Positions 521 through 49,618 of a stretch of DNA of 49,903 nucleotides are shown one piece after another (within the stretch, counting starts at the first letter, position 1; each line of letters begins with the position of its first letter). Source of the stretch: a virus (lineage: Duplodnaviria > Caudoviricetes); the IMG/VR virus record IMGVR_UViG_3300017780_002852, positions 1-49,903 of that record, one strand, 5' to 3'. Made by a program: the position numbers and the translations under genes. The notes under the pieces were generated by a model. That model worked only from the letters and a program-made list of their open reading frames with translations, searched no databases and was not told the origin of the DNA.

Positions 521-1276
521 CTAGCCGTTGATGCGGCGTTGGACATCTTCAGCGCGGAGCTGCATGAACTGGCACTTGGGGCCGTTGTTGAAGAAGTCCT
601 CGGCACCCTCGATAGCACCCCTGTACACGCGGCGCATGGTCTTCTCAGAGTTGAGCCACGCGTTGCTCAGGGTACGGTACTCGATGCCGTAGGGCTTCGG
701 ACGATACGCCCCAGCCTTGCCGTAGAGCTGACGACGGATAGGATCGCGGTCCCATTCGAGGGAGGGGATGCCCAAGGTCACGTCAAGGTTGCGCGCCAGA
801 CGCCCACACAGGAGCAGGTGGTCACGGTCAACCTCGTCAGTCACACGAGCCCAGCCGATGTGGACGTGCCCAGACGCCGTGCGGATGGTCTGCTCGGCAT
901 TCGGGGACGGGTTCTTGTCGAACGTGTACGCCGAATAGTCCGGGTTGCAGCCCAGCTCGATGGCTTGGCGAGGGAGCTTGGAGAAGTACGCCTTCTGGTA
1001 CTGCACATACGGAGCAAGGTGGAACATATAACGCTCCGGGATCATGGCACGAACCTGCTCCATGACTTCCTTGACGTTGTGAACGAACTCGTCCTCGGAA
1101 GAGGCCGGGTCGGTGTTGAACTCGACAGCGGTGCCATCAACCTGCACAGCGCCGTGCTTGAGGATGTGGGGCTGCTCCTTGGTGCCCGGCACAAGGTCGT
1201 GAGCCGAGCGGTACGCGCCGTTCACGGTGTCGATCAGGAAGAACTCAGGATCGCAACCGATGGTGAACTTGGTCAT
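521..1276 (-). CDS. phiEco32-like COOH-NH2 ligase type 2
   Basis: Motifs TIGCDPEFF, DGTAVEFN, GCNPD, GHVHIG, YGKAG-R-KPYGIEYRTLSN. Confidence 0.9.
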   Translation of the reverse strand: MTKFTIGCDPEFFLIDTVNGAYRSAHDLVPGTKEQPHILKHGAVQVDGTAVEFNTDPASSEDEFVHNVKEVMEQVRAMIPERYMFHLAPYVQYQKAYFSKLPRQAIELGCNPDYSAYTFDKNPSPNAEQTIRTASGHVHIGWARVTDEVDRDHLLLCGRLARNLDVTLGIPSLEWDRDPIRRQLYGKAGAYRPKPYGIEYRTLSNAWLNSEKTMRRVYRGAIEGAEDFFNNGPKCQFMQLRAEDVQRRING

Positions 1277-1294
1277 GTGTGATAGATGCCTTCT

Positions 1295-2506
1295 CTAGTT
1301 GATCTTGGCTGGGACTTGGGCGATGTGACGAAGGGATGCGTCGGTATTGCAGATGTTGCAAAGAACGTCTCCGGTGGCCCCAACACCACAGTCTTTCAAC
1401 TCGTGGGGCTCAACAGAATCCTTGCAACAGAAAGCGCAACCGTTGTCAGAGAGAAGCTTGGCAACAAGCAGGTCTCCGGTGAGGATGGGAACAAGGGGAT
1501 CAACGATCTTTGCAGTCTCTTCCTCGGGAATATCGCCAGAGGCCCATTCAGCATAGATACGGTTCAGAGCCGTGACAAGACCCTCAAACCGCTTGCGCTG
1601 AGGCTTGGCCCATTTGTGCCGAGTAGAATGGTCGAAGCCGATCAGTTGCATCTCCATCCCTTGGATCATATTCAGTGCCGCTTGTTGCGGTGAGACCCCT
1701 TTCGACGGTTTATACCGTGTCGAGACCGGACCAACCCCCCTTCCTCCAGTCGTAGGCGGGATAGCTTTTTTTTCCGGTTCCTTACCCCCCTCGATACGCG
1801 TGATCGTCACGGACTCAGCGATGGGCTTACCAGAAGCCAGATCGAGTTCCATGAGAGTGTCCTCTTCGAGCAGACGCGGAAACTGCTCCAAGGTCTCAAT
1901 GCCGTTGCGCTGAAGAACCCAGTAGAGCATCTGGCCTTCAGATGCCCAATAGATTTTCTTCTTGTCCTTGGAGAAGGCGTAGGACAGGCTGCGTTCCTTG
2001 TTGCGGACGAAGCCAAGCTTCTTGTTCTCAGCATCGAGAAGAGCCAAAGCCCACGCACCCCAGATTTTCGGGAGGACCTTGTCGATGCCCTCCTTGGAGA
2101 TGTTGTAGATCAGCTTCTCGGAGTCAATGGCCCCTTTCAGTTCATGGGGCAGATTACCCAAGGCTTGGAACGGGATCATACCGTTGTGCATACCGACGAG
2201 ATCGTTCCAGTAGAACGGGTGGGCGTCCTCGTGGTTGTACTTGGATTGCCAGTCCGACGTGGACTTGCGGGTGTGACCCATGAGCACGTCATTGCGCGTA
2301 GTGATCATGTTGTCCACACGCCTGAGATCGATGAACGTGGAGCTGGGGACAGCACGCTTGAAGATGTCAACGGTGCCCGTCTTGGTCTCGAACCCGCAGA
2401 GGCCAGAGGCGTCGTTGCCCCTGACTTGGCTGTGGTAGAGCAGCTCCTTGAAAACATCGGTATCCTTGTGACCAAGGTCACCGGCAACGCCTGCAAGTCC
2501 ACACAT
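1295..2506 (-). CDS. Class II (Ntn) glutamine amidotransferase with C-terminal Cys-rich extension
   Basis: N-terminal MCG, RG-DASG, GHTR, AHPF, HNG, DSE; C-terminal CAFC...CNIC. Confidence 0.9.
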   Translation of the reverse strand: MCGLAGVAGDLGHKDTDVFKELLYHSQVRGNDASGLCGFETKTGTVDIFKRAVPSSTFIDLRRVDNMITTRNDVLMGHTRKSTSDWQSKYNHEDAHPFYWNDLVGMHNGMIPFQALGNLPHELKGAIDSEKLIYNISKEGIDKVLPKIWGAWALALLDAENKKLGFVRNKERSLSYAFSKDKKKIYWASEGQMLYWVLQRNGIETLEQFPRLLEEDTLMELDLASGKPIAESVTITRIEGGKEPEKKAIPPTTGGRGVGPVSTRYKPSKGVSPQQAALNMIQGMEMQLIGFDHSTRHKWAKPQRKRFEGLVTALNRIYAEWASGDIPEEETAKIVDPLVPILTGDLLVAKLLSDNGCAFCCKDSVEPHELKDCGVGATGDVLCNICNTDASLRHIAQVPAKIN

Positions 2507-3207
2507 TAAACGTTGGCCTCCTTAAAGCCAAGACTGGGAAGAACGTATTTGTTGACGTAGTTCAGGAAGAGCGCCTGACAGTTGGGGTATCCTTGAAATT
2601 CAGGGTGAGGCTGGAAGCACAGGCTGCGGGTGCCGGGATACCACATGGCCTCGATGTCGATGCCGTCGTGTTCCCACTTGCACGCTTCGGGGATCAGCTT
2701 CTTCGTGTTGGTGCGCTTGCTGACGCCGTCACGGTCGATGGCATACGCCAGAAGCTTGAACGGAATGTTCTGATCAGGCGTAGGTGCACGCATCATCTGG
2801 TGGTGAGTGGACGAGCAGAAGTACGCCTTCTTGTCATCGACGGAGTAGACCGGGTGGTCCATGACGTGGTCTTCGACGTGTTGCCACAGCTTACCTCCGT
2901 TCATGACGTTAAGGAACTGCCCACCACGGCAGATACCGATGAACGCACGCTTGATGTTGTCACCCTTGTTGATCAGGCGGTGATAGATTGAAGTCTCCAC
3001 CGCATCACGTTCAGGGTTGTTGGCCGTCCGGTTGAGCTTGGGCTCACCATACAGGGAGGGTGAAACGTCAGAGCCCCCCGTGAAGAGGATGATGTCAGCT
3101 TCTTCGTGGTCGAAGGTCACCGCGCCGAACAGGCCAGCGAGGCGCTTGTATTCCCCGTTACCCCCCTCGACGTAGACCATGGGGACTTTCTGCTCAGGCT
3201 TAGACAT
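2506..3207 (-). CDS. Class I glutamine amidotransferase / gamma-glutamyl hydrolase (peptidase C26-like)
   Basis: FTGGSDVSPSLYG, GICRGGQ (nucleophile Cys), STHHQ, QPHPE. Confidence 0.9.
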   Translation of the reverse strand: MSKPEQKVPMVYVEGGNGEYKRLAGLFGAVTFDHEEADIILFTGGSDVSPSLYGEPKLNRTANNPERDAVETSIYHRLINKGDNIKRAFIGICRGGQFLNVMNGGKLWQHVEDHVMDHPVYSVDDKKAYFCSSTHHQMMRAPTPDQNIPFKLLAYAIDRDGVSKRTNTKKLIPEACKWEHDGIDIEAMWYPGTRSLCFQPHPEFQGYPNCQALFLNYVNKYVLPSLGFKEANV

Positions 3208-4075
3208 ACGGTTTCACCTTGTTATCCCAGTACCACTTGTTCAGCAGCACGGGGTTCTTGAATGTATTCTTCTCGGCAAAGTCGTTGCCGTAGCGGTCTT
3301 GCTCCCTCGGCTGCCAGCTGTCAGGACCCTTCTTCGTCACACCAAGGAACAGCTTATCGGAGCTACCCCCCATGAACGTCTTCGGAGACTTGCCAGACGC
3401 GAGACTTTTCTTCGGGTCTGGCGTGTAACCGGCTTTCAGATAGCAGACAGCGGTGTTGGGGTACACCGACGCAGAGAAGTTGTTGTGCCCGCCGCCCCAG
3501 CTTTCAGTGTGGAGCTTGCCACCGATAGAGAGAATGTGGTTGGCGGCAAAAACGTTCCAACGCAGCGGAAGGTCCTTGGTCTCAGGAGCTTCGAGAAACA
3601 TCCTGAGAGATTGCCGCGCGCCGTTGAACTCGTAGGCACGACGGTTGAACACCGCAAAGCACCCCATCTCAGGGAGGCTGAGGGTCTTGAACGCAGTCTC
3701 ACCGTACACGATGCCCATGTAGGCAATCAGCTTGGCGCGATCCTCGGGAGTATCGTAGCCCTCCAGCTGTTCAGGCATGGCATCAAGCCACGGCTGCCAC
3801 GGGGAGTCAGGATGGGTGACCGCGTGGTACGTGTAGAACTCACGTTCAGCGAGGTCTTTGTTGTGGCCATGGCCAATGTACCCCGGGAGGAACCAGAACG
3901 GAAGCATCCCCTTGTCACAGGCGTAGTCGAAGCCTGCATAACAGCCCGTGCCGTGGCTGTCCAGATCAAAGCCGGTGCGAAACCCCAACCCGGCACACCC
4001 CACAGGGGCATCGTTGGAGTCCTTTTTGAATTTGTTGAGCAACTTCTCAACAAACTTGTTTCTCACGTCAATCAT
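3200..4075 (-). CDS. Hypothetical protein within amidoligase cluster
   Basis: 291-aa ORF overlapping both neighbours; no motif recognised. Confidence 0.75.
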   Translation of the reverse strand: MIDVRNKFVEKLLNKFKKDSNDAPVGCAGLGFRTGFDLDSHGTGCYAGFDYACDKGMLPFWFLPGYIGHGHNKDLAEREFYTYHAVTHPDSPWQPWLDAMPEQLEGYDTPEDRAKLIAYMGIVYGETAFKTLSLPEMGCFAVFNRRAYEFNGARQSLRMFLEAPETKDLPLRWNVFAANHILSIGGKLHTESWGGGHNNFSASVYPNTAVCYLKAGYTPDPKKSLASGKSPKTFMGGSSDKLFLGVTKKGPDSWQPREQDRYGNDFAEKNTFKNPVLLNKWYWDNKVKPYV

Positions 4076-4454
4076 GAGTGCGAACCCATGCTGCTACGTC
4101 TCCTTTGTAACGAACGTTTTGGTATTTCAGATGCCCACCTTTGGGCAGCTCTTCCTGAAGATACATCCACGCTTCAGGCATTCCGATGATACGAACCGGT
4201 TGGCGTTTGTACCACTGAGGATGCCCCTCCAGCCGGTCGAGCTGTGATAGATAAGCCACGTCCAGCACCCGGTACATCTCCACCTCAATGAGATGGGTAG
4301 CCGGTGCCTTGAAGACAATGGGGAAGCGGCCAGCTGACGCCATATGATAGCGATCAGCAGTCACAAAAGTACCCACGTAGCGAAAGCCGCGTGGGTCCAT
4401 CATGTGATTATTGTGGAAGCCTTTCTTGAGGCTACCGTATACGGCAATGTGCAT
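4068..4454 (-). CDS. Gamma-glutamylcyclotransferase (AIG2-like)
   Basis: AVYGSLKKG-N, LDRLEG-P-Y-R, AWMY. Confidence 0.9.
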   Translation of the reverse strand: MHIAVYGSLKKGFHNNHMMDPRGFRYVGTFVTADRYHMASAGRFPIVFKAPATHLIEVEMYRVLDVAYLSQLDRLEGHPQWYKRQPVRIIGMPEAWMYLQEELPKGGHLKYQNVRYKGDVAAWVRTHD

Positions 4455-5558: not shown

Positions 5559-5706
5559 TGTTGGCTTTCTCCACTTCAACAGCCTTGGTGACTTCTTCGT
5601 TGGCTTGCTTGACGCTCTGGTCAGCCTTCCCCGCGTGATAGATACACCACAACAGGGTGATGACAGCGAGCCCGATAAGCCCATAGGCGATCAGCTGCTG
5701 TTCCAT
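5431..5706 (-). CDS. Putative i-spanin (Rz-like)
   Basis: N-terminal TM helix followed by Ala/Glu/Lys-rich helical region and Pro/Asp tail. Confidence 0.6.
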   Translation of the reverse strand: MEQQLIAYGLIGLAVITLLWCIYHAGKADQSVKQANEEVTKAVEVEKANNELERQSREAADAAVAAGDAAGPAPDDPDSLPDSVRARIFGR

Positions 5707-7427: not shown

Positions 7428-7973
7428 TTAGGCGGCTTTCGGGACCAGCTTCAGGCCGTGCGCGGGTTTCACCTCGCTCAGCGCCTTGATATAGGCTTGC
7501 GCGGCGGGAATGTCGAGATCAGCCGCGACGCGGTCGTTCTCAATCGCCTTGTCCAGCCGTTTCGCGAGGCGTTCAATCGCCTTCACGATGGCGTCAGCAT
7601 CCATCGCGCGCGGGTCTTTCTCCGCCGTGTGGTCCCAGTACATGACAGCCGCGAGGCCGTCGAGGTTCCAATCGGTAAAGCCCTTTTCCTCAGGCTTGAG
7701 GATGCGCGATCCCTTTTCCACCGCCACGTCATCCTTCAGTTTCAGGCGGATGGGCGTGAAGTCATACAGCCACGCCGTAAAGGCTTTCTTCCGGGTCGCC
7801 GTGTGGAGCGCGTTGTAAAGGTCAACAAACAGCGTCATATCGCCGTGTTCCTTCGCGTGTGCCGCCATACCGAGAGAGGTCGAATGGATCAACTCGGCAA
7901 GCTTGCCCCCCATTGCCGCGATTTGACGGATGGAAGAGCGGAAGGCTTTCTTAGTGTCAGACATGGGTAGCAT
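7428..7973 (-). CDS. Conserved early phage protein (HGD-motif family)
   Basis: SIRQI...HAKEHGDMT...RKKAFTAW pattern recalled from early proteins of other podophages; function unknown. Confidence 0.8.
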   Translation of the reverse strand: MLPMSDTKKAFRSSIRQIAAMGGKLAELIHSTSLGMAAHAKEHGDMTLFVDLYNALHTATRKKAFTAWLYDFTPIRLKLKDDVAVEKGSRILKPEEKGFTDWNLDGLAAVMYWDHTAEKDPRAMDADAIVKAIERLAKRLDKAIENDRVAADLDIPAAQAYIKALSEVKPAHGLKLVPKAA

Positions 7974-7988: not shown

Positions 7989-8261
7989 CTAGCGATTGCT
8001 AAAGCGTTTGGGGTTGGCGGGCGTGATAGATTCGAACCGTTCGGTTCTCCCATAAGGCGAATGCCCGCCGCGTGCGCCTTTGGATTGGAGATGCTGCGTT
8101 GTCATAGGGGAAGCAATGTCGCTTTCCCGTTTCACCTCACGCAGCGAAATGTGCAGATTGTCATTGACTTGCGAGGCACGCCACATGGCGCCTAGCTTTG
8201 CCAGCTTGCGTTCCCGTTTCCCGGGTCGGATGTGCTTACCCACGGGGAATAACCATATCAA
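7989..8261 (-). CDS. Basic early hypothetical protein (start uncertain)
   Basis: ORF fills the gap between early genes. Confidence 0.45.
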   Translation of the reverse strand: MIWLFPVGKHIRPGKRERKLAKLGAMWRASQVNDNLHISLREVKRESDIASPMTTQHLQSKGARGGHSPYGRTERFESITPANPKRFSNR

Positions 8262-8454
8262 CGTGGAAACCCTGCCGCGTATAGGACGCGTATGCCCGTT
8301 CGGCGTTGGCGCGACTGTCCAAGGGATACATAACCGTGTCCCACTGGCCTAGCGGCTGGCCGTCCCGATTGTCCGGCATTCCGACGCCGCGCCAAACGTG
8401 CAGCGATATGTAACCGTCGCGCGTGTCTTTCGCGCCAGATTTGAAAACGTTCAA
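8236..8454 (-). CDS. First early hypothetical protein
   Basis: GGGAG RBS upstream of TTG start. Confidence 0.55.
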   Translation of the reverse strand: MNVFKSGAKDTRDGYISLHVWRGVGMPDNRDGQPLGQWDTVMYPLDSRANAERAYASYTRQGFHVDMVIPRG

Positions 8455-8898
8455 GGCACAATACTCCCGTTGTTGACACTCAAAGGTTGAGTGTTTTGTC
8501 AGTGGCTACTAAGCGCGAGCATAGCTCCGCCTTTGGCCAAAACCGGCTTTTCAGGCCGGTGCGATTTATCCCCAACGTTTCCCAAGCTGCCCCCATGCAC
8601 ACAACGCGCATGGCTTCACCCAGTACTCGGCAAGAGCACACAAGCGCGGCAAGAGATAAGGCCGCTATGAGGTCGCACGGGTTCGCATTCCCCCAAAGGA
8701 GGGGCTTGGTTCTTCCGGCCACAAAAGGACCATACACCACCCCGCCCCAGATACCATATCGATAATCGATAAACCACCACTTGTGATAATTATTACACAC
8801 CTTGTAACGATGTTCACGCCTCCCCGGGCGAGCGTGATAGATGTTACAAAGCGAGGAGAACGCGCGAGGGGGAGAAGAACGCGTACATACGCGCGAGA

Positions 8899-8914
8899 TG
8901 CAAGACCCGTGCCA
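8899..8914 (-). promoter_or_regulatory. sigma54 -24/-12 consensus site
   Basis: TGGCACG-GGTC-TTGCA on minus strand. Confidence 0.75.
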
Positions 8915-9076
8915 TTCATCCCATATCGCCAAGTCGAACCCCTCCGCTACCCATCCCTAGGCGGACGGGAACTCGCGAGTGCGGGCCATCCCTGCCCCGG
9001 CAAGAGGCATGAACGAAAGGGGAACATGATATCACCTGACGTTACGTCATACTGAGATTTTCTAAACAGTCGTGCT

Positions 9077-9213
9077 TGATACTCATGCAAGTAACGTGCC
9101 ATGGCTATATTACAAATGTAACATCGGGATACCCATTGATACTGATGCAAGTAACGGGCCAGATTATGTTTGTAATACAACGGGGTGATGATACTGATGC
9201 AAGTAACGTGCCG
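9077..9213 (-). repeat. Three 24-bp direct repeats, each carrying a sigma54 -24/-12 site
   Basis: TGATACT(C/G)ATGCAAGTAACG(T/G)GCC at 9077, 9137 and 9189; minus strand reads TGGCACG/TGGCCCG/CGGCACG-TTAC-TTGCA. Confidence 0.85.
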
Positions 9214-9536
9214 TGTTAGTCCTGATGCCTGAATTCTGAATACTGAATACTTTGCTCAACGTTCAGTGTTCAGTGAAACATCCTGTAACATTAATTGAAC
9301 GGGGAGGGGATTGACTTCCCTTACGCCCATATGATAAGATGAACGCGGGGGGTAGCCAAGGGGGGTCATGGGGGCCTTCCTCTGTGCAATGACACACGTT
9401 TTCATATTCTCCAAGAAATTCTCAGAATATTGGCCCGTGACTCCCTTGACAAATTTCCCGGATGCGGCATTTGAGCCTCTATGGACTTTTCTGTCGGTCT
9501 TCTCTAGAAACAGAATGGCTTTTTCTTAAAAGCCTC

Positions 9537-9565
9537 TTGACTTTTGTTTCAAAATATGCTATAAT
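9537..9565 (+). promoter_or_regulatory. sigma70-type promoter for the structural arm
   Basis: TTGACT-17nt-TATAAT with TG extended -10. Confidence 0.85.
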
Positions 9566-9776
9566 ATAGATGTAATCCAAAACAAGATACAACAACATCC
9601 CTACTAATGGCAGTCCTTCAGTAATGAAGACAGCCTGTCGGCTGTGGGTTTGCTGAACGCCACAGCAACAACGCTGGTGAGTCTACTAGAATCCTCCCAT
9701 ATATTAGGAGAGGGCTGAATTTCAAAATCGGTAATCAAGCCTTTGCTTGGTTGATCCTTACCTAAAGGGGCGCTCT

Positions 9777-15071: not shown

Positions 15072-15338
15072 TTGCCCGCAATGACCCTTGCGCAAAAACG
15101 TGCAGCTAAGAAATACAACGCAAAACCGGAACAGATCAAACGGCGATCAAGCCGTAACAAGGCCCGCCGCAAAATGATCAAAGCAGGTAAAGCCAGAAAA
15201 GGTGATGGTAAAGACGTTGGACACAAAAATGGTAACCCCCTCTCAAACAAACGCTCTAACCTCAGAATGCAATCCAAACGGAGCAACCGCTCCTTCGCCC
15301 GCACCAAAACGGCGCGGAAGAAAAACCCGCGCGACTAA
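15072..15338 (+). CDS. Small basic HNH-like endonuclease (terminase-associated)
   Basis: KGDGKDVGHK-G-N-SNLR-S-NR; AGGAG RBS. Confidence 0.7.
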   Translation: MPAMTLAQKRAAKKYNAKPEQIKRRSSRNKARRKMIKAGKARKGDGKDVGHKNGNPLSNKRSNLRMQSKRSNRSFARTKTARKKNPRD

Positions 15339-16917
15339 GGATACTGTAGCTACAGATACCCCGTCTGTAGACATTACGGAAAACGACATCCGGGTTGCAG
15401 CCGAAGCTTCATTTGAAGAGTTCGTTCGGCTTGTAGCCCCTAGGAATGTGTTCGGGCACGTTCACATCGAACTGTGTCAATGGCTGAGCCGGAAGGATGC
15501 TAAAGATCACCAGCTCGTCTTGATGCCACGAGATCACGGTAAGTCCCGGTACGCTGCTTTCTACGCTTTGTGGGAGATCGTGCGAAACCCCGCAATCCGT
15601 ATCTTGTATATCTCGTCTACCGCGAACCTTGCCGAGAAACAACTCGGCTTCATCAAAGACATCATGCAGAGCGCCAAATTCCGCCGTTACTGGCCGGAGA
15701 TGACGCACGAGGATGAAGGCAAGCGCAAGAAGTGGACTAACTCGGAGATCATGGTCGATCACCCTAAACGGGTGGAAGAAGGTATCCGAGACCCGACGGT
15801 GATGATCGCCGGTCTTGAGAAGTCCATTACGGGTCTGCACTTTGACCTCGCTATCCTTGATGACGTTGTTGTCCAAGAGAACGCTTACACAGAAGAAGGC
15901 CGTGACAAAGTCAAAAGACAGTATTCTCTTCTGGCGTCTATCGAAGGTGCAGATGCTAAAGAGGTTGCTGTTGGTACTCGTTACCACCCCGCTGATCTTT
16001 ATGCTAACATGCTCGCTATGGAGTATGTCCCTGTTGATGAAAATGGAGAGGAAGGCGAACCTGAGAAAATCTACGAAATCTTTGAAAGACAAGTAGAGGA
16101 CGCAGGAGACGGTACTGGCCAATTTCTCTGGCCGACACAGACAGGGTCCAATGGTCAGACCTTTGGGTTTAATAGAAACATCCTTGCCAAGAAAAAAGCA
16201 AAGTACATCGATCAAACTCAGTTCAGGGCCCAGTACTACAATGACCCAAATGACACTTCTTCTGCCGCTATCGGACGTGACAAGTTTCAATACTTCGATC
16301 CAGCCTTCCTTAAGTTTGATGGTAGACACTGGCACATACAGGGACGGCGGCTCAATATTGCTGCTGCTATCGACTTCTCGTATTCTACAAGACTGCGATC
16401 TGATTATACCGCTATCGCCGTTGTGGGAATAGACGCAGACCGTAGGCACTACATTCTTGAGATCGACAGGTTCAAGACCTCAGAGATCAGGGACTACTAC
16501 CAACACATCCTTGATCTGTACAAGAAGTGGGATTTCAGAAAGCTCGTGGCCGAAGTCTCTGCCGCCCAGCAGGCCATCGTCAACGAACTCAAAAGCTCCT
16601 ACATCGTCCCCAACGGTATCATGCTGTCGGTGGTTGAGGTCAAGCCTACACGCCACGACGGGACCAAGGAAGAACGCCTGAAGGCTATCCTTGAACCCCG
16701 CTACCAGAATATGTCTGTCTGGCACTACCGTGGTGGCAACTGTCAGGTTCTGGAAGACGAGCTTGTCTTGCAGCACCCGCCCCACGATGACTGCAAAGAC
16801 GCAGTCGCCAACGCCTTTGTGAACCTTTCCCCTCCTGCCTCTATGATGTTTGGGGAAGCAAACAAGAACGTCGTTCAACTTAAGAGCCATCCCAAATTCG
16901 GTGGACTTGGAGGATAA
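15202..16917 (+). CDS. terL: Terminase large subunit (true start probably near 15340-15375)
   Basis: Walker A PRDHGKS, Walker B AILDD, GTRYH, QYYN, nuclease IDFS...SDYTA and HDDCKDA. Confidence 0.92.
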   Translation: MMVKTLDTKMVTPSQTNALTSECNPNGATAPSPAPKRRGRKTRATKDTVATDTPSVDITENDIRVAAEASFEEFVRLVAPRNVFGHVHIELCQWLSRKDAKDHQLVLMPRDHGKSRYAAFYALWEIVRNPAIRILYISSTANLAEKQLGFIKDIMQSAKFRRYWPEMTHEDEGKRKKWTNSEIMVDHPKRVEEGIRDPTVMIAGLEKSITGLHFDLAILDDVVVQENAYTEEGRDKVKRQYSLLASIEGADAKEVAVGTRYHPADLYANMLAMEYVPVDENGEEGEPEKIYEIFERQVEDAGDGTGQFLWPTQTGSNGQTFGFNRNILAKKKAKYIDQTQFRAQYYNDPNDTSSAAIGRDKFQYFDPAFLKFDGRHWHIQGRRLNIAAAIDFSYSTRLRSDYTAIAVVGIDADRRHYILEIDRFKTSEIRDYYQHILDLYKKWDFRKLVAEVSAAQQAIVNELKSSYIVPNGIMLSVVEVKPTRHDGTKEERLKAILEPRYQNMSVWHYRGGNCQVLEDELVLQHPPHDDCKDAVANAFVNLSPPASMMFGEANKNVVQLKSHPKFGGLGG

Positions 16918-36363: not shown

Positions 36364-37260
36364 ATGGCTCTACCAGCAGCTATGCGAGCAGCCGCCAAGG
36401 TTGCTAAGGAAACTGCCGCCCTTGATGAAGTCGTCGAGGTGGGTGGTCGCTCCATGTCCAAGCGGGACCTGATCAAGTTTGAGATTGAGAAGATGCTTCG
36501 GTCCAACGGCTCGCAAGCCGATGTGACCAAATCTCTCAAGTCACAAGGTATCACCTTTGACAATGAGTGGATCAAGAATCAGATTGCCGTTGCCAAGCGA
36601 AGGGACATGACCCTCAAGCCTGATCCTCGTCAACGCAAGATGGAGGCAAACTGGGTTATTGAAAAAGGCCTAGGAGAAGGCAAGACGTGGGAACAGATTG
36701 GAGTTGACCTTCAAGACGCTGGGTTCAAGAAGGGTGGAGAGATGGCCCTCCACGCCAAGTCCATGTACTACAAGCGGCTCATGAGCAAGCCCGAGCCAGC
36801 CGTGATAGATAACGGTGAGTCGGGCCCCAACGCTGGGCCGCAAGATGGGGACTACCGTATGCCCCAGAAGTTGACAGATGAGGAGTTGATGGGCGCTTTG
36901 AAGGCCGCTGCTGAAGAAGCAAGCAAGCGGGCGAAGAACCAGACTCGTGCTGCCCGGGAACGAGGAGCTGCTAGCATCAACTCGTTTGATTGGTCTGGTC
37001 TTGATGAGTTGGCAAAGATGTGGTCTGATCCGGGGTACAAGAACCCGGAACTTATTGATCCTAAGATGTCTGGGAGCCTGCCTGATGGCCCGGCTCGTCC
37101 GTCTGATATGGACGTTATCACAGCAGAACGGATGCCAAAGACTGAAGAAGAGATGTCAGCCACCTTCCCTCGGGGTTTCAACTACGACACGGCCAGCCCA
37201 GAGGACCAGAAGCGATGGCGGGAGACTGCTGCGGAAGCAGACCGGCGTAACAAACAATAA
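36364..37260 (+). CDS. Hypothetical protein with two HTH-like repeats
   Basis: IEKMLRSNGSQADVTKSLKSQGI and IEKGLGEGKTWEQIGVDLQDAGF. Confidence 0.7.
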   Translation: MALPAAMRAAAKVAKETAALDEVVEVGGRSMSKRDLIKFEIEKMLRSNGSQADVTKSLKSQGITFDNEWIKNQIAVAKRRDMTLKPDPRQRKMEANWVIEKGLGEGKTWEQIGVDLQDAGFKKGGEMALHAKSMYYKRLMSKPEPAVIDNGESGPNAGPQDGDYRMPQKLTDEELMGALKAAAEEASKRAKNQTRAARERGAASINSFDWSGLDELAKMWSDPGYKNPELIDPKMSGSLPDGPARPSDMDVITAERMPKTEEEMSATFPRGFNYDTASPEDQKRWRETAAEADRRNKQ

Positions 37261-47591: not shown

Positions 47592-47770
47592 GGGCCGTAC
47601 TTCTCAAGGTGCCTTCCCGAAACCTCAAAGTCATATGCTTTTTCAGCATAGTCGAGCTTGCGTTTACGGTTGAGCGTAACATGAGCAAGTTCCTTGTAGT
47701 ACTGCTCAAGTACTTGATAAGCTTTGACGGCTTCTTCTTTACTTATACTTGTCTCGGAATGCTTGGGCAT
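47588..47770 (-). CDS. Hypothetical protein
   Basis: MPKHSETS..., AGGAG RBS. Confidence 0.55.
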   Translation of the reverse strand: MPKHSETSISKEEAVKAYQVLEQYYKELAHVTLNRKRKLDYAEKAYDFEVSGRHLEKYGP

Positions 47771-48491
47771 ACCAGTCTCCTGCCATATCGGTGAGGCCCG
47801 GAGCCGTGTTGACTTCGAGCACATAGGGCTTGTCACCCTTCTCTACCCAAGCAATATCGACACCACCAAAGTCAAGCCCCAAGGCAGCAACAGCAGCCAC
47901 AGCAGCGTCAAGGCTACGCTGCGTAGGGGGATTGGCGGGGTCACAGATGTAGCGGTAGCCGTTGGCGTGGGATCGGACAAAGTCATTGTCAACAGCAATG
48001 TCTTTGTGTTTGATCTTGCGCTTGAAGCCGATGACTTTGCCTTGGAAGACGTGGACTCGGTACTCACGCTTTTTCCTCACATATCTAGTATACACCTTTG
48101 CGGGCACGATGTCAACAGCTTTCTCTGCGACAATGATACCCTTGCCCTCGGACGCCTCAAGAAGGGTGCGGCACATGACAACGGACTTCTCAGCCCACTT
48201 ACGTGCCTCGTCAATGTCCGTGGTGAAGTCAGGGATGAGCACGTCGTGTTCGCGCAAGGCATGGTAGGCCTTGAGCTTGTTGACGGCTACAGCCACGTTC
48301 GCAGGCCTGTTGTAGATACGCACGGCAACAGGGGGAGCCCAGTTGGTGTTGCCCCAGTTAATAACGTGGTGCCCGCCCCGGATCAGGCCGGGGTCAGGCA
48401 TACGGTGGATGCCCAGCTTGCGGGCAAGGATACGTGCGCCTTCAGAGTACCGCTTGTACGGCACGACGCAAAGAACGTTCTTCAAAGCCAT
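47739..48491 (-). CDS. ATP-grasp ligase (RimK-like, phage type)
   Basis: INWG, NKL, G-GI, EYRVHV, LGLDFGGVD, VLEVNTAPG. Confidence 0.9.
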   Translation of the reverse strand: MALKNVLCVVPYKRYSEGARILARKLGIHRMPDPGLIRGGHHVINWGNTNWAPPVAVRIYNRPANVAVAVNKLKAYHALREHDVLIPDFTTDIDEARKWAEKSVVMCRTLLEASEGKGIIVAEKAVDIVPAKVYTRYVRKKREYRVHVFQGKVIGFKRKIKHKDIAVDNDFVRSHANGYRYICDPANPPTQRSLDAAVAAVAALGLDFGGVDIAWVEKGDKPYVLEVNTAPGLTDMAGDWYAQAFRDKYK

Positions 48492-49618
48492 TACAGCTCC
48501 TCCTCTCGATCATCAGGGATAGCTTCGCGGGGATCATCAAGAATGAGTATATTGGCAGGGTTTCTACCAACTACGACATTCTTGATCTTGACAGCAGGGA
48601 AGTCTTCCCAAGCATTAACGTGCTTCCACGCTACCCTGTGCCTACCATCTTCCGCGCGCTGCCCTTGCATCCTTAGCAACTCGTCTGCGGCGTTCAGCGG
48701 GCGGGGGTCCGCCGGGCCTTGGGGCTTTTTTGTCGCCGCTTGGGCTGCCTCCTTCGGGGCCTTTGCCCACGAAACGCCGAAGGCAAAGTCCTGAGCGGTC
48801 TCAAGGGGGCCACGGGAAAGGTGATACACGTCCTTGATCAAGTCCCAAGTCTTCGGGAGTTCCCTCTGGAGAAACCCGTCAAGCCCGTTGATGGAGCTTT
48901 GGTAGAGATAGTCCTCGGGGGTGTACTTGTAGTTGTTCTGAGCGAAGTCCACCATCTCCTTGAGAACCTCAACCCAAGCAAGGATACGGTCTTCGTCAGC
49001 CTCACCTTCGTGAAGACGCACTTCGACAGAGCCGAACTTCCACAGGGCATGGAAGTTGATGGCCATGTACCGCATGTTCTCTTGGTTGAACACTTGGAAG
49101 CTGCCGGTCTCGATGGCGTTGATGAACTGGAGAGCGAAGTTCGGGTTCTCCATGAGCGAGATGCAGAAGTGGTTGCCCTTACGCTTGGGGCCACGAGCCG
49201 CAAAGAAGTATTCCTCGCACAGCGCATAGAGCGTGATGAACTTGCACAAGGTGTACAAGGTCTTGTGGGAGAAATCGATGTGGGTGTGCAGAGAGCACCG
49301 GTTCGACAGGTGAGGCTTGAACCCGACAGCCTGCTTGTACTTGGCAAAAGCGGGAAGGGCCTCGGTAGCAATGTCTTTGACAGACAGGGGAGCCCGCAAG
49401 ACAAGCTCGGTCGCGTCACCACGAAGAGACGGGTCTTGGTGGGCAACCCAGCTGCCACGCGCCATCACACCCATCTGATCCGCGCCAAAGCCCTCAAGCT
49501 CAAGCTCCAGACCAAACTCCTGATCGGGGGGATACGCAGACTCACCACAGAAGCGGTTCATTTTCAAATTGAGCAGGTTAGCCTCGGGGGCATACCGCTC
49601 AAACCTAAGCTTAGCCAT
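48491..49618 (-). CDS. Putative amidoligase (COOH-NH2 ligase fold)
   Basis: FGLELELE, DPSLR-E, CSLHTHID, RYMAIN, GSVEVR. Confidence 0.88.
   Translation of the reverse strand: MAKLRFERYAPEANLLNLKMNRFCGESAYPPDQEFGLELELEGFGADQMGVMARGSWVAHQDPSLRGDATELVLRAPLSVKDIATEALPAFAKYKQAVGFKPHLSNRCSLHTHIDFSHKTLYTLCKFITLYALCEEYFFAARGPKRKGNHFCISLMENPNFALQFINAIETGSFQVFNQENMRYMAINFHALWKFGSVEVRLHEGEADEDRILAWVEVLKEMVDFAQNNYKYTPEDYLYQSSINGLDGFLQRELPKTWDLIKDVYHLSRGPLETAQDFAFGVSWAKAPKEAAQAATKKPQGPADPRPLNAADELLRMQGQRAEDGRHRVAWKHVNAWEDFPAVKIKNVVVGRNPANILILDDPREAIPDDREEEL

Follow-up and report, generated by a model that had tools for sequence, protein, structure and literature searches.

Arrays of sigma-54 (RpoN) promoter-type sites, of which the window (the whole 49,903-nt stretch of phage DNA analysed here) carries one with four sites, are, as judged from sequence, a real, conserved and widespread feature that is tied to phage genome ends. 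They recur in many unrelated phages and are absent from most close kin of the window phage. The reading that we tentatively put first, with a chance that falls a little short of even, is that the array is an activator-less docking platform for the host sigma-54 polymerase, acting in cis at the genome end: its sites would bind host sigma-54 RNA polymerase in closed complexes that are stable and mostly silent, and these complexes would serve to cap or mark the end of the DNA instead of acting as ordinary promoters. Both the binding in the host and the role in cis at the end are what we infer, and the distal site could additionally fire as a promoter.

Four sigma-54 consensus sites at the head of the early arm

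The window assembled as a complete circle (123-nt terminal overlap, completeness 100%). Its genome is of the podophage type and has two arms that diverge, the replication and early genes being on the minus strand and the structural genes on the plus strand. No RNA polymerase family was found among the 59 window proteins scanned, and by its cobavirus-type terminase and gene layout, its divergent arms and its apparent lack of an RNA polymerase gene the window phage is Zobellviridae-like. In a terminase tree of 16 rows the window sits on a long branch (0.9). One freshwater metagenome run contains the window and is probably its source, and no variants were seen in that run.

The original prediction had described four minus-strand sigma-54 sites pointing into the early genes, and all four read as it claimed (Table 1; coordinates include the flanking base, and scoring was over 13 consensus positions). 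GG at -24, GC at -12, the exact spacing between them and the consensus flanks are present in 4/4 sites, and successive sites are 52, 60 and 187 nt apart. The whole-genome count of matches is marginal taken alone (8 against a shuffle mean of 4.0, with 8 or more in 5/100 shuffles), but the clustering is far above that of shuffled sequence: 4 sites fall within 8001–9750, where 2000 dinucleotide shuffles gave 0.076 on average and never more than 2, and among 100 shuffles of the whole genome a single one placed as many as two sites of the same strand within 320 nt. The window cluster is not chance. A single 27-nt repeat, in copies that are 85–93% identical, makes up the three upstream sites, which are hence not independent draws.

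Table 1. Features of the window that are discussed in the text
Feature	Position	Strand	Remarks
First sizeable early gene 3′ of the array, phrog_1448	7428..7973	-	Query used for finding relatives
Conserved early-leader element	8653..8669	-	Common to L083, L084 and L085
Sigma-54 site 4 (distal)	8899..8915	-	12/13; 187 nt from site 3 (186 in L083); predicted start ~8888
Conserved block of non-coding DNA, sites 3 to 4	8935..9065	-	105/131 identical to L083
Dyad ACTCGCGAGT in conserved block	8971-8980		
Dyad TGACG-N3-CGTCA in conserved block	9037-9049		
Sigma-54 site 3	9086..9102	-	12/13; 60 nt from site 2, as in L083
Dyad TTACA-N2-TGTAA between sites 2 and 3	9110..9121	.	Also in L083; one change in array-less L084
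Sigma-54 site 2	9146..9162	-	12/13; orthologue of L083 first site; GG and TTGCA kept
Sigma-54 -24/-12 site 1	9198..9214	-	11/13; ~180 nt inside inferred left end; extra 27-nt repeat copy
Conserved terminus motif ending in C-runs	9340..9425	-	Aligned over 17 junctions, including the ICBM1 annotated terminal-repeat start
Strong sigma70-type promoter TTGACT-17-TATAAT	9537..9565	+	11/12; heads structural arm
Terminase large subunit	15202..16917	+	Top matches cobaviruses and other Zobellviridae, 53–57% identity

Position of the array beside the inferred left end

The annotated terminal repeat of ICBM1, 172 nt long, begins inside the aligned terminus motif, and by this homology the left genome end of the window would lie near 9393 with the sites ~180–495 nt inside it, so that the earlier placement of the array near a genome end is kept as a placement by homology. 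The sites begin approximately where a terminal repeat of the ICBM1 size would stop. The window fits the pattern of repeats at a genome end that a packaging-end array would show. No other non-coding space is as large as the terminal gap, and this could account for the array position without any role at the end.

Relatives that have arrays and relatives that lack them both possess, next to the terminus motif, an equivalent of the strong promoter that heads the structural arm. In the early arm three minus-strand sigma70 matches were found, all of 9/12 (5 on both strands versus 2.9 by chance). The claim that no clear sigma70 promoter heads the early arm is therefore true, but it does not set the window apart, as an early-sense match of 10/12 is present in the slots of only 2/12 full-length array-less relatives. 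Inside the inferred left end, and directed toward it, is another sigma70-like promoter, which has an extended -10 (9311–9340, plus strand); for transcription from it to enter the late arm, the DNA would have to be circular or concatemeric, or the promoter copy would have to be that of a right-end repeat. Two further roles of the array were considered and dropped: repression of the late promoter by occlusion, given a distance of ~320 nt here and of 160–300 nt, by eye, in three other loci, and an insulator role, which was ruled out as both arms diverge from the junction.

The conserved block between sites 3 and 4 lies, with its two dyads, 47–177 nt upstream of the predicted start of the distal site, and its flanks are 64/116 and 54/116 identical to L083. 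It is a candidate activator-binding region or small RNA; it had no Rfam match, and a two-sequence fold was uninformative (2/33 pairs compensatory). Just downstream of the distal site are an 18-nt inverted repeat (8802–8849) and three CRP-like boxes (8780–8848, two mismatches each).

The same slot in close relatives

The closest relative, L083 (first early protein 73% identical), also has four co-oriented sites. Three of them are orthologous to window sites, the 60- and 186/187-nt spacings are kept, GG and TTGCA are intact in 3/3 with 7/12 spacer bases the same, and one site pair is 27 nt apart. Conservation of the GG/GC spacing, which the original prediction had singled out as a check, is thus found in this genome. 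It also bears on a neutral origin, in which one or two chance sites were amplified by local duplication: three of the four window sites are indeed near-identical repeat copies, but three sites are kept in L083 though the region is only 333/561 identical, and the site pattern exceeds its spacing control in IMG/VR (see below), and we regard such an origin as barely credible. L084 (first early protein 59% identical) has no array and neither sigma-54 sites nor TTGAC in the slot, and it keeps the leader elements; hence the early arm of this clade need not depend on sigma-54.

To survey the related termini, 46 terminase-relative loci were reduced to 17 candidates, of which three that were too short and one with a malformed match were dropped; the retained junctions with the window, L083, L084 and ICBM1 make up 17 slots. 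An array occupies the slot in 5/17 (window, L083, L072, L041 and L043), L030 has a single strong site and 11 have none. All sites of the window and of L083 are directed at the early genes, as are most of those of L072 (4/5); in L041 (4/4) and L043 (3/4) they point toward the genome end and are packed 27–54 nt apart. On the 16-row terminase tree, which is without L083 and L084, the array label needs 3 changes, and the well-supported branches are compatible with a single array origin. No cluster of three sites was found in 23 further virus records, 10 of these at least 90% complete, and the array is absent in all 13 named Zobellviridae records. Because 11/17 junctions and both of these sets of records lack it, the array cannot be a core part of packaging, and its patchiness among kin that share the terminase makes it an accessory, likely host-dependent feature. 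The array-less L019, L042, L057, L071, L076 and L084 hold other lineage-specific short repeats (CAAGTAA, TGTAAC, TAGGA-type) in the first 300 nt inside the terminus motif.

Searches for closer carriers were negative within their scope. The exact window repeat pattern had no match in IMG/VR, the relaxed pattern led to 3 loci that lack an array and whose proteins did not match those of the window, the window dyad pattern gave 13 loci, none with an array, and an alignment search of viral contigs confirmed no close relative. No cultured phage with an array was found, the terminase search giving only distant matches and blastn with a 25-site array short weak ones, and no cultured-phage DNA matched the window.

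In L072 an early-facing sigma-54 site (1098–1245, minus strand) has three NtrC-like boxes ~85–150 nt upstream and two IHF consensus boxes. Three NtrC-like boxes were reached at this distal site in 1/1000 shuffles, boxes here and elsewhere being scored against what we take to be the NtrC consensus, and the site is a candidate nitrogen-regulated phage early promoter. IHF boxes were searched for with a published consensus (PMC2709558).

The L072 layout is that of an enhancer-dependent promoter and bears on the strong rival for the window genome, that the sites are genuine early sigma-54 promoters. At least the distal site would then be switched on by a host enhancer-binding protein on the upstream block, the other sites would be tandem promoters or loading sites, and early expression would be tied to host physiology. 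Gating of early expression on host sigma-54 was among the options of the original prediction; we rank it below an end platform, as a possibility to be taken seriously that we do not expect to hold. That the sites of the window and of L083 are co-oriented and far apart, at distances that are kept, suits promoters, as does the conserved block with its dyads at an upstream distance. Moreover, TTGAC is present in 11/12 array-less slots versus 1/5 array slots (Fisher p 0.01, with kin that are not independent), and the Pseudomonas phage YuA has one sigma-54-like promoter (10.1101/2023.10.13.562163). The window, on the other hand, has no NtrC box scoring 8/10 and no IHF consensus between its sites, where conserved dyads are present, and in L041 and L043 this slot is filled by reversed arrays. 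Viral arrays in general show no excess of NtrC-like boxes nearby (8/115 loci versus 11.3 expected), the sequence downstream of the window distal site is by eye nearer to the L072 cluster site than to the L072 enhancer-type site, and the leader elements persist in L084 with neither sigma-54 sites nor TTGAC. Reliance on a conditional host activator would also seem costly for a lytic phage.

Arrays across viral and cellular genomes

A tandem two-site pattern is present in an estimated ~1,400 IMG/VR stretches, as scaled from 125 stretches in 6/64 IMG/VR parts, compared with 114 stretches in a full scan for a spacing control with GG–GC off by one, a ~12-fold excess of the true pattern. Control matches are mostly coding-type repeats, their spacings being a multiple of three in 90/97 versus 33/125 in arrays. 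Viral arrays contain up to 25 sites, as in L182 (215–1000), where 25 sigma-54-type sites stand in blocks of alternating direction over ~790 nt, and within a genome the strict sites are mostly gathered in a single place. The array had been put forward as the best candidate in this genome for an undescribed system; given this recurrence, it is not peculiar to the window phage.

A terminase gene was recognized with PHROGs in 19/33 loci tested, and tblastn placed a large terminase gene 0.8–3.0 kb from the array in 39/72 flanked viral loci with at least two strong sites. The queries were mostly drawn from array loci, which biases this share but should not bias the upstream/downstream asymmetry: the array is upstream of the terminase gene in 39/39 loci, which form 15 clusters at 50% identity, one of them of 21 loci. 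Sites near terminase genes face away from them in 119 cases and toward them in 48. Of 36 loci compared for a G-run like that of the ICBM1 terminus motif, 27 have the stronger run toward the terminase gene and 3 have it on the opposite side, with 6 ties. Enrichment at contig ends was not seen (18 versus 12.8 expected within 1 kb; control 13 versus 13.6).

Counted once per cluster (81 clusters), same-strand spacings are 25–29 nt in 62 cases, 30–34 nt in 6 and 20–24 nt in 1, against ~20 expected each, and convergent site pairs are mostly 19–22 nt apart. Orientation is mixed in 26/37 clusters with four or more sites. A spacing of 26 nt would be 2.5 helical turns and would put neighbours on opposite helix faces.

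In cell genomes triple arrays are rare, the pattern being found in 92 stretches across 185,579 genomes, 40 of which are identical-core repeats. Among the varied arrays are one on L336, a phage contig, and those of two satellite-like elements with an integrase and a primase, L341 (4507–5275, in a Desulfovibrionaceae genome) and L385 (4069–5220, in a Methylococcaceae genome), where the array is dense and lies at one element end, after small ORFs. Sigma-54 is encoded in 17/20 cell genomes hand-chosen from the 92. The L341 ORF beside the array has a small-terminase-like motif by eye.

Sigma-54 identity and the missing activator

The consensus TGGCAC-N5-TTGCW (PMC4253122) is followed at the positions that the search pattern left free in 250 distinct sites of other viral arrays (R 95%, W 88%, Y 83%, versus 34, 63 and 60% in the control), and together with the spacing kept in L083 this upholds the sigma-54 identity that was originally proposed: the motif very likely represents sigma-54 sites. 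If the binder were instead encoded by the phage, for instance a regulator or the small terminase, which binds the R sites of lambda cosB, the sigma-54 likeness would be incidental. The terminus-adjacent position, the mixed orientation, the different short repeats that other relatives hold in the slot and the motif in the satellite ORF could all be so explained, but one and the same bipartite motif, with exact spacing and sigma-54 preferences, is found in 15 terminase clusters and next to no fewer than three families of small terminase, close kin lack it and the satellite ORF matched no terminase family. We therefore consider a phage-encoded binder improbable.

The sigma-54 holoenzyme forms a closed complex that is silent until an activator acts, and sigma-54 alone occupies some promoters in vitro (PMC2715252). 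The original prediction saw no such activator in the genome, and the searches agree: no GAFTGA-like motif was found in the six frames of the window at up to one mismatch, neither PF00158 (activator) nor PF04552 (sigma-54) was matched in the window phage, and among array phage records (14 at least 90% complete, many fragments) an activator was found in 0/43 and a sigma-54 domain in 0/41. An alternative, also raised there, is that the sites are promoters opened by a phage-delivered non-AAA+ activator that is ejected with the DNA. The genome encodes large internal-virion-type proteins without assigned function and the sites do face the early genes, but neither PF00158 nor GAFTGA was found, the 2074-, 920- and 298-aa proteins had no Pfam match and the last of these no usable Atlas match. 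We know of no precedent for an ejected activator of this kind; the option gained no support, and we hold it to be very improbable.

A proposed docking platform at the genome end

A docking platform for silent sigma-54 polymerase is favoured because the position beside the terminus is fixed, the orientation is free within one family and the packing is too tight for initiation everywhere; at the preferred 25–29 nt there is no room for each site to initiate, and this spacing would fit side-by-side occupancy on opposite helix faces. We also count in its support that no activator or sigma-54 domain was found in the array phage records, that L084 keeps its leader elements with no sigma-54 site, the satellite-like elements with arrays at one end and the presence of sigma-54 in most of the chosen cell genomes. 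That bound holoenzyme might grip or shield the DNA end had been among the options of the original prediction, and so far as sequence can tell it fits best with the terminus position, the mixed orientation and the close packing.

Within the docking reading three roles may be ranked. First comes a mark that would show terminase, and the machinery that processes the terminal repeats, where the end or the concatemer junction lies, though by itself this is unlikely; shielding or anchoring of the entering end is less likely again; and a sponge for sigma-54 is distinctly unlikely, the titration of RpoN that had been suggested earlier being a poor fit since a pure sponge leaves the fixed position unexplained. 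More broadly, many unrelated phages and satellites might have arrived independently at helically phased arrays on which locked host RNA polymerase would coat the genome end, as a structural cap that marks the packaging junction or protects the incoming DNA end, an idea that is doubtful though quite credible.

Several observations weigh against docking. The window sites are co-oriented into the early arm and widely spaced, which suits promoters, and the sites near terminase genes mostly face away. Moreover, TTGAC is missing from 4/5 array slots, the L072 distal site is enhancer-like, array-less kin are common and arrays are not enriched at contig ends. The docking and promoter readings can coexist in one genome.

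Relation to known systems

The phage sites share with bacterial sigma-54 -24/-12 promoters the motif, the exact GG–GC spacing, the tolerated substitutions and a closed complex that is silent without activator (PMC4253122, PMC2715252). They differ in that they are clustered, from three to 25 together, often in both directions and 19–29 nt apart, by phage ends and with no activator gene found. In E. coli, most sigma-54 binding sites appear transcriptionally inactive and single intragenic sites are no roadblock (PMC4591121). Such silent sites are likewise bound by holoenzyme without transcription, as is predicted for the phage arrays, but as described there they are single, mostly intragenic and chromosomal, whereas the phage arrays are intergenic and have a fixed genome place. 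The promoter P015 of phage YuA is likewise a phage promoter of the host sigma-54 type; it is a single promoter rather than an array (10.1101/2023.10.13.562163), and it is not known to be linked to a genome end. A literature search that covered mainly the main texts of open-access papers found no paper on sigma-54 arrays in phages.

Other Zobellviridae (ICBM1, ICP2 and kin) have a terminase (50–57% identical), divergent arms, the terminus motif and a strong late-arm promoter in common with the window. They differ in lacking the array, and ICP2 has three annotated sigma70 promoters in the slot.

Packaging junctions are marked in other phages by different means. In lambda cosB, IHF sites accompany the R sites to which the small terminase binds, and T7 RNA polymerase pauses at the concatemer junction. 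A protein-bound array or a halted polymerase just inside the genome end would be the analogous element here. Unlike in lambda and T7, the proposed binder is a host sigma factor held by its need for an activator, the array is present in only some kin, and the packaging role is a proposal.

The use of sigma-54 by phages is hardly described, with one YuA promoter and no arrays in the literature searched. If the arrays are end caps, the locked state of a sigma factor would be a structural tool in packaging or entry, a non-transcriptional use, and the host range of many environmental phages would depend in part on rpoN. In the case of promoters, early expression of lytic phages would be timed by signals of the host, for example its nitrogen status, with which the NtrC-like layout of L072 fits. 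Either outcome bears on the role of silent sigma-54 binding sites. An effect of rpoN on Salmonella phages was ascribed to RpoS and glutamine (PMC8744999), which would confound plating on rpoN-null hosts.

Further observations on the carrier genome

A small basic ORF at 7989–8243 (minus strand), probably the first early gene, is kept in L083 and L085, with similar starts by eye in L084 and L041; it had no family match, and the 7428..7973 protein had no relative among solved structures at E 0.001 (best 0.003). As host indicators, the tail fibre gave only leads scoring under 0.9, and GANTC at 0.52 observed/expected in the window is a weak hint. The final structural-arm gene (36364–37260, plus strand), which encodes the 298-aa protein, has helix-turn-helix-like stretches by eye. 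Minus-strand genes at 521–4454 and 47739–49618 encode a COOH-NH2 ligase, two glutamine amidotransferases, a gamma-glutamyl cyclotransferase, an ATP-grasp-type protein and an amidoligase, and this cluster reads as a peptide-modification module linked to glutamine/glutamate use. Finally, the motif ATCTATCACG occurs four times in the window, at 5634, 8022, 8833 and 36801, always on the minus strand and three times within the early arm; its 9-nt core lies near an early gene in L084 and L085 and occurs once in L083, and it is a possible site for a phage regulator.
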